64,000 nt of DNA from a virus: positions 32,001-96,000 of the IMG/VR virus record IMGVR_UViG_3300035698_017726; one strand, given 5' to 3'. The notes under the pieces were generated by a model that was given only the letters and a program-made list of their open reading frames with translations, was not told where the DNA came from and ran no database searches. The first letter of the stretch is position 1; each line of letters starts with the position of its first letter. Shown one piece after another: positions 62,374-62,533 of the stretch. The position numbers and the translations under genes were made by a program.

Positions 62374-62533
62374 AGTCTCCCGCGACCAGTGTGCGTCTTG
62401 CCTAAGGACGCGAGAGCAGCAGTTCTCCAGGCCCTACTCCGGACATAGGACGAGGTCCGTCGTGCCGCTTCGCTTGTGTCCGCTCTTTCAAGGATGGCTG
62501 CATCGGCCTACCTCCTCGCCGCAGACGGAGACT
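62374..62533 (-). ncRNA. 23S rRNA L11-binding domain (H43/H44) mimic RNA with a structured insertion
   Basis: Minus strand reads AGGAGGUAGGC-CGAU-GCAGCCAUCCUUGAAAGAG...GCACACUGGUC, closed by GUCUCC/GGAGAC. Confidence 0.75.

Follow-up and report, generated by a model that had tools for sequence, protein, structure and literature searches.

The GTPase-associated centre (GAC) of 23S ribosomal RNA (rRNA) comprises the top of helix 42 (H42) along with H43 and H44 (E. coli 1051-1108) and forms the 58-60-nucleotide (nt) uL11/thiostrepton domain. Imitation of an rRNA protein-binding site by an RNA outside the ribosome is known from the autoregulatory leaders of ribosomal proteins. In the L10 leader (RF00557), for example, the ligand binds next to the GAC. 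These leaders are cis-acting mRNA elements located upstream of ribosomal protein genes and imitate no more than part of the site. GOLLD (RF02032) and ROOL are phage-borne RNAs of unknown function, often found beside transfer RNA (tRNA) genes. The nearest literature to the present case deals with ribosomal proteins encoded by phages, bL12 domains among them (10.1101/174177). The element analyzed here occupies the spacer between a tRNA-Glu and a tRNA-Gln gene in a 64,000-nt stretch of DNA from a salt-lake phage, referred to as the window (IMG/VR record IMGVR_UViG_3300035698_017726, positions 32,001 to 96,000). The order of its parts and its helices are the same as in the 23S GAC. Unlike the 23S GAC, it is free-standing, closed by its own stems and situated within a phage tRNA array. 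It is very probably a real member of a conserved family of phage RNAs. No description of such a GAC-imitating phage RNA was found in full-text literature searches and none is present in Rfam 15; the family is apparently undescribed.

The element and its likeness to 23S rRNA

The spacer lies at 62367-62534 on the minus strand, to which all coordinates of the element refer. The whole of it (168 nt) is presumed to be released as a non-coding RNA with a structured part at 62375-62532. Its sequence was found as written in the initial annotation, including the ends which pair with each other. GUCUCC (62527-62532) forms the 5' strand of an outer stem and GGAGAC (62375-62380) its 3' strand, as read from the sequence and the pair list. 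The spacer was aligned with 23S rRNA of E. coli (rrlH, L121) and of Arthrobacter (L163, a stretch of a large replicon read as a 23S gene in an unannotated record). In E. coli numbering, the window shows A1054-C1065, a short loop, G1071-G1089, an 81-nt foreign domain, a hairpin and A1101-C1111. G1058:C1080, U1060, A1061, G1071-C1072-A1073, U1082, A1086, G1087 and A1088 are retained along with the 3' strand G1099-G1110, which carries U1101A. All the 23S positions which had been claimed as retained were confirmed against both references. The tertiary-core nucleotides in common with the 23S GAC are U1060, A1088, U1082, A1086, G1071, C1072, A1077-C1079 and the pairs G1091-C1100 and C1092-G1099. Outside the loop, the 5' half equals Arthrobacter-type 23S at every position except U1061A. 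The further differences from E. coli 23S are a compensatory change at 1058:1080 (G:C for U:A) and position 1083.

The closing stem P1, which represents the top of H42, has its 5' strand at 62515-62522 and is composed of 5 base pairs (bp), a G.G mismatch and then A1054-U1105 and G1055-C1104. The H43 hairpin (equivalent of A1057-U1081) was located at 62491-62513 by covariance model (CM) alignment and by alignment to 23S. Its stem contains the pairs 1057:1081, 1058:1080 (G:C), 1059:1079 and 1062-1064:1074-1076. The H43 loop (62499-62505) is rewritten from UUAGAA to CGAU. The junction 1082-1089 follows at 62483-62490 with the sequence UGAAAGAG, which holds U1082, A1086, G1087 and A1088. The H44 hairpin (62393-62401) keeps the G1091-C1100 and C1092-G1099 pairs under a loop rewritten from GUAAUA to AAGAC (5 nt against 6). 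It is followed at 62382-62392 by A1101, C1102, which pairs with G1087, A1103 and the 3' strand of P1. The changes in the A1067 and A1095 loops noted in the initial annotation are thus real, and both loops are shorter than in the 23S GAC, by 2 nt and 1 nt, respectively.

The other departures from the 23S GAC are U1101A and the non-rRNA domain of 81 nt at 62402-62482, inserted between U1090 and G1091. At its base is a helix, GGAC/GUCC (62478-62481 with 62406-62409), topped by a hairpin which is long and irregular, and a UUAG linker follows. It has 15 7-mers in common with 23S rRNA against 13.7 +/- 4.2 in shuffled sequences, so the words in it which resemble the sarcin-ricin loop (SRL) are taken as chance. 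No sarcin-ricin motif is present in the insert, and no similarity was detected between it and the inserts of other family members described below.

The Rfam 15 large-subunit (LSU) rRNA models gave no match in the window at the gathering score, in 62200-62700 at E<=10, or in the whole contig. Against all Rfam 15 families, only tRNAs and chance-level matches were obtained in the window (gathering score) and in 62200-62700 (E<=10). In BLAST searches the spacer had no match in phages and E. coli genomes, and in plasmids only marginal matches (E 0.5), which were interpreted as 23S rRNA genes of large replicons. As the LSU scan was blank and the flanks are tRNAs, there is no rRNA context at the element, in agreement with the initial annotation.

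The phage RNA family

IMG/VR was scanned with a pattern of the 19-nt core containing two free positions. At least 119 contigs matched, representing approximately 88 non-redundant elements. Among the matches listed, approximately 117 of 119 contain H43 in full and continue into sequence which is not rRNA; many of these elements directly follow a tRNA. A common architecture was evident in 60 non-redundant elements: a closing stem, the H43 core, a junction ending in AAAGAGU, an insert, a UUUG linker, the H44 hairpin, GCACAC and the other strand of the stem. The inserts vary from 18 to about 360 nt, the shortest being that of L035 (18 nt). In 34 of 60 members, a tRNA on the same strand is situated at 60 nt or less. 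Rfam 15 placed no family over the element in the 15 family loci tested.

A covariance model, R1, was built from 20 short-insert members with the window left out. In the window it gave a single match, at 62388-62516 (minus strand; 34.9 bits, E 1.4e-9), and the same site was again the sole match in the whole 114.8-kb contig. In the fetched loci, R1 found 98 further matches of 41-127 bits. The search for homologues with covariation, suggested in the initial annotation, thus returned a family in which covariation is strong. On the R1 alignment 93.6% of the cells are paired and both sides change in 9 of 17 pairs, while none of 500 shuffles and no slid register came near the observed score. The 1058:1080 pair occurs as GC (34), UA (26), AU (17) and CG (2), and all five pairs of the insert base helix covary. 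The closing stem has 9 positions paired in 80-100% of the members with all pair types, beyond which pairing falls to about 45%, the background in this anchored count. Loop-to-loop covariation analyzed by mutual information with permutation gave nothing significant.

Single positions are also conserved. A1101, which gives GCACAC instead of the GCUCAC of rRNA, is present in 69 of 71 family members and in the window. The 1067 loop is near-invariant (U1066 in 78/78, A1067 in 69/78) and so is the 1095 loop (G1093 in 68/68, U1094 in 67/68, A1095 in 61/68 and A1098 in 68/68). The junction positions 1082-1089 were set by the search pattern, and their invariance in the sample is not independent evidence. 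Position 1061 is variable (U 39, A 21, G 15, C 3).

The window element shares with the family a closing stem of about 9 positions, the H43 core, one of the four Watson-Crick states at 1058:1080, a helix with a paired base at 1090/1091, A1101 and the tRNA array. As in the family, the insertion helix is followed by a 4-nt linker before G1091, here UUAG. Unlike the other members, it has both apical loops rewritten, with neither a UUAGAA-type 1067 loop nor a GUAAYA 1095 loop, and an extra outer stem of 6 bp past an asymmetric internal loop. Its G1083 and C1090 are rare states and its insert is unrelated to those of the others. All 17 specified positions of the core pattern are untouched in the window, as are the other family-conserved positions outside the loops except one or two. 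The derived states A1101 and the 1090/1091 insertion argue for common descent within a phage family and not for a recent capture from a host.

The inserts fall in recurrent types. Several short ones, for example those of L012 and L078 (alignment A1, columns 113-131), hold a second stretch resembling the H44 loop, of GUUAAUAGCUCAC type, while others have the conserved motif GGCACCCCGGAAACGGUAAGGC in common. The insert of L068 (L068:5598-6014) contains the 12-nt SRL motif AGUACGAGAGGA, identical to E. coli 2654-2665, and that of L029 (L029:3685-4071) a near-copy of the motif. With two carriers among 88 non-redundant members and only 4 loose matches in 2.26 Mb of loci, the SRL motif is a genuine though uncommon trait of the family, not present in the window element. 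The L068 and L029 RNAs therefore combine, in one molecule, the two rRNA elements which meet translation GTPases. A GAC-imitating element (96 bits) lies about 100 nt beyond a GOLLD RNA in L003:1582-2287, an arrangement also seen in L081; the GOLLD RNA scores 184.6 bits with Rfam and encloses a tRNA.

Cultured phages also have unannotated members, so the hypothesis is open to experiment. Aeromonas phage 4_4572 has one (L167:692-987; 90 bits) 22 nt before a tRNA-Met, XacN1 has one (L165:691-934; 78 bits) just after a 2'-5' RNA ligase gene, and Cronobacter phage GAP32 has one (L164:692-946; 70.5 bits) in the gap between GAP32_395 and GAP32_396. In the GAP32 copy, G replaces the otherwise invariant U1078 (CCAGCAUUU). 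A scan of genome contigs with the short-insert pattern gave 36 matches, of which three (L131, L135 and L153) are real members and the rest chance. All three are in contigs of metagenome-assembled genomes, and two of these contigs, each of about 148 kb, may be binned phages. Paenibacillus phage Pd_22F was rejected as a family member, as its match is rRNA-like, with GCUCAC and no insertion. This locus (L166, 83.3-84.7 kb of the 86.4-kb record) holds a genuine 23S-like GAC flanked by rRNA, representing either contamination by host rRNA near the record end or a real capture.

Candidate ligand and rival explanations

According to the published contact list, the surface bound by the uL11 C-terminal domain consists of nt 1058-1060, 1062-1065, 1075-1083 and 1088 (PMC1802607). 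All of these are in register in the window, with identity to Arthrobacter 23S at 16 of 17 and to E. coli at 13 of 17. The sole difference from Arthrobacter-type 23S is U1065C, a change also present in 11 of 78 family members. The nucleotides deleted or rewritten in the window are those of the thiostrepton and N-terminal domain contacts, 1067-1070 and 1095-1098. In the CM alignment U1066 and A1067 are deleted, A1070 is replaced by U and the 1093-1098 loop is replaced. The proposal that the uL11 surface is kept while the factor and antibiotic loops are rewritten therefore holds on the published contacts. L11 binding requires the tertiary fold of the GAC, in which A1067, A1069 and A1095 make no tertiary contacts (PMC6239185), so the loops of the window can change without necessarily breaking the fold. 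U1061A had been described as fold-stabilising. This holds in Mg2+, but the substitution is destabilising without divalent ions (PMC6239185), and the position is variable in the family.

The following explanation is tentatively considered the best, with a probability slightly below even. The spacer would give a non-coding RNA of about 160 nt, co-transcribed with the phage tRNA array and freed by the enzymes which mature the tRNAs, through 3' trimming at tRNA-Glu and RNase P cleavage at tRNA-Gln. Like other RNAs of the family, this divergent member would fold as a self-closed copy of the 23S GAC with an extra helix between U1090 and G1091, and would act off the ribosome by offering a compact GAC body to a host component which recognises the GAC. 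The likeliest such component would be the ribosomal protein uL11, bound by its C-terminal domain. As the uL11-binding surface is kept, uL11 is the simplest candidate for the window copy, with odds somewhat below even. The A1067 and A1095 loops, the contact sites of thiopeptides, translation GTPases and the N-terminal domain of uL11, are rewritten, and their shortening suggests imitation of the uL11-binding body and not of the factor-facing cleft. In a wider, somewhat unlikely scheme, large phages would make an independent RNA version of the base of the ribosomal stalk. By capturing uL11 or another GAC reader, such as RelA or a translation GTPase, this RNA would readjust the translation or the stringent response of the host during infection, and the window copy would be a natural separation-of-function variant keeping only the face for the uL11 C-terminal domain.

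Several observations weigh against this explanation. The window copy has the lowest CM score among the full-length matches. Its minimum-energy structure in the nearest-neighbour model (-65.5 kcal/mol) is 9.5 kcal/mol more stable than the enforced family fold (-56.0 kcal/mol). In it, the internal-loop segment GUCUGC (62521-62526) pairs with GCGGAC (62478-62483), which comprises G1089, C1090 and the 5' strand of the base helix of the insert. This competing pairing, predicted by the model, could be chance or an alternative state. The folding energy has a shuffle z-score of only -1.3. The 1067 loop, being 2 nt shorter, could hinder or strain the contacts of G1071/C1072 with H44 which the fold needs. 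The rewritten loops, regarded in the initial annotation as a design feature of the mimic, are not one for the family, where these loops are near-invariant and rRNA-like and the window copy is the sole changed one found. The near-invariance of the exposed loops along with the SRL motif in two members suggests that the family ligand reads the factor face, which is lost in the window. Scans of viral contigs for the shortened 1067 loop gave no match and then two chance matches rejected by the model. With no relative found to carry the loop variants, selection on that variant cannot be shown. A scan of metagenome contigs gave three further matches (L122, L123 and L124), which were rejected as true 23S genes by reading, with rRNA flanks, GCUCAC and no insertion; in these 23S genes the 1067 loop is 2 nt below the usual length (GGCUGAAGCAGCC type).

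That the element is a captured fragment of host 23S rRNA or an assembly chimera is hardly credible. Its core is of the actinobacterial 23S type over the non-loop 5' half except U1061A, as expected from a capture, but neither flanking rRNA nor an LSU match accompanies it, and A1101, the 1090/1091 insertion and its own closing stem are family signatures foreign to rRNA. The claim that it imitates the GAC and is not an rRNA scrap is therefore upheld by features which the window has in common with about 88 elements, namely U1101A, the 1090/1091 helix and a closed, covarying stem. A chimera is opposed by contigs from three salt-lake metagenome runs (three studies) which cover the element with zero differences; the source sample may be one of them, and the others are independent. 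A single piece in one run reaches from tRNA-Gln across the element into tRNA-Glu; two pieces from a second run do so jointly. The identical sequence across the tRNA junctions contradicts the possibility, raised in the initial annotation, of an assembly chimera. Loss of function is the more serious concern, although still quite unlikely: the window element would be a decaying copy of a functional ancestor, persisting as a processed spacer of the tRNA array. The lowest CM score, the insertions or deletions in both family-conserved loops, the occurrence of this variant in no relative found and the more stable alternative fold are all consistent with decay. In contrast, the changes are limited to the two loops, the 17 core-pattern positions equal the family consensus and all four helices as well as the outer stem are intact. 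By hand count, about 34 conserved core positions are spared and most of the 11 loop positions are changed, which is unexpected under neutral decay. The identical sequence in the three metagenome runs also speaks against decay, while the lack of variants in the element among these DNA runs gives no information on selection. Either specialisation or partial decay may lie behind this variant.

Other explanations place the function of the family elsewhere. It is possible, though unlikely, that the family imitates the factor site and engages EF-G, EF-Tu, IF2, RF3 or RelA instead of uL11, the window copy being weakened or retargeted. The near-invariance of the A1067 and A1095 loops, which the free RNA does not use for tertiary contacts (PMC6239185), would be accounted for in this way, and so would the SRL motif of L068 and its near-copy in L029. 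The rarity of the SRL motif in the family and its absence from the window, where both loops are also rewritten, do not fit this explanation. Isolated GAC RNA, moreover, binds factors weakly. The GAC fold might instead serve as a compact stable junction which closes or protects an RNA active through its variable insert, with no ribosomal ligand, a proposal about as improbable as decay. The range of insert lengths and the several unrelated insert types, the member about 100 nt after a GOLLD RNA and the retention in the window of the fold-forming core but not of the exposed loops are in line with such a module. Against it, the 18-nt insert of L035 offers hardly any space for a function of its own, loop nucleotides which are exposed and dispensable for the fold (PMC6239185) keep their rRNA identity throughout the family, and the window insert is unlike that of any other member. 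Improbable to a higher degree is a decoy for a GAC-recognising enzyme or defence toxin, such as an rRNA methyltransferase or nuclease, which would shield ribosomes or keep a sensor from responding during infection. All that agrees with a decoy is the general fact that many large phages closely imitate a functional site of the ribosome. Against it, no anti-phage system targeting the GAC was found in the literature searched and the window copy lacks A1067, the known methylation target.

If uL11 or readers of the factor site are bound, the family would represent a new viral route onto the translation machinery, through an RNA copy of a ribosomal centre made beside phage tRNAs. It appears to be present, unannotated, in hundreds of uncultured large phages. 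It also provides dozens of natural variants of the 58-nt GAC, a classic RNA-folding model, including a tolerated insertion site at 1090/1091. The addition of the window to the family is a loop-rewritten variant, a ready natural control with which uL11 binding could be told apart from the binding of factors or thiopeptides.

Genomic setting and comparison with known systems

The source record of the window is 114.8 kb long with 56% G+C and has 44 tRNA genes, of which almost all belong to the minus strand. The tRNA-Glu(UUC) gene preceding the element (62535-62610, minus strand; ARAGORN, Rfam tRNA 49.2 bits) encodes its CCA and ends 2 nt upstream of the outer stem. The tRNA-Gln(UUG) gene following it (62292-62366, minus strand; ARAGORN, Rfam tRNA 59.3 bits) is reached by a U-rich tail of 8 nt (62367-62374), which would end at the RNase P cut site. 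This geometry fits the release by tRNA processing proposed in the initial annotation, the processing itself being presumed. Neither promoter-like nor terminator-like sites were detected by sequence scan within the spacer, and its tRNA strand has no open reading frame of 60 or more amino acids. No gene for uL11, bL12 or uL10 is encoded on the whole contig, which is neutral for the proposed binding of uL11.

Among the protein genes within the tRNA island (53380-54853 and 61558-62277, minus strand) are those of a sigma-70-like protein (regions 2 and 4), an HNH endonuclease and a calcineurin-like metallophosphoesterase. The neighbouring metallophosphoesterase showed no close relative in IMG/VR by pattern search. 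At 58222-58501, three tandem tRNA-like genes are on the plus strand amid the otherwise minus-strand array. ARAGORN called there a tRNA-Asp with anticodon AUC and a tRNA-Lys(CUU) of 85 nt, and Rfam adds a 103-nt tRNA match at 58305-58407 (plus strand).

GOLLD and ROOL resemble the family in being phage-borne and in their frequent position beside tRNA genes. Neither gave an Rfam match in the window or a match overlapping the element in the 15 family loci, and unlike them the window element is much smaller and has a core which is a copy of rRNA. The ribosomal protein leaders are similar in that an off-ribosome RNA likewise imitates an rRNA protein-binding site. No Rfam leader family, including RF00557, matches at the window element even at E<=10. 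Unlike these leaders, the window element is a stand-alone RNA between phage tRNA genes, with near-exact identity to 23S rRNA in its core.

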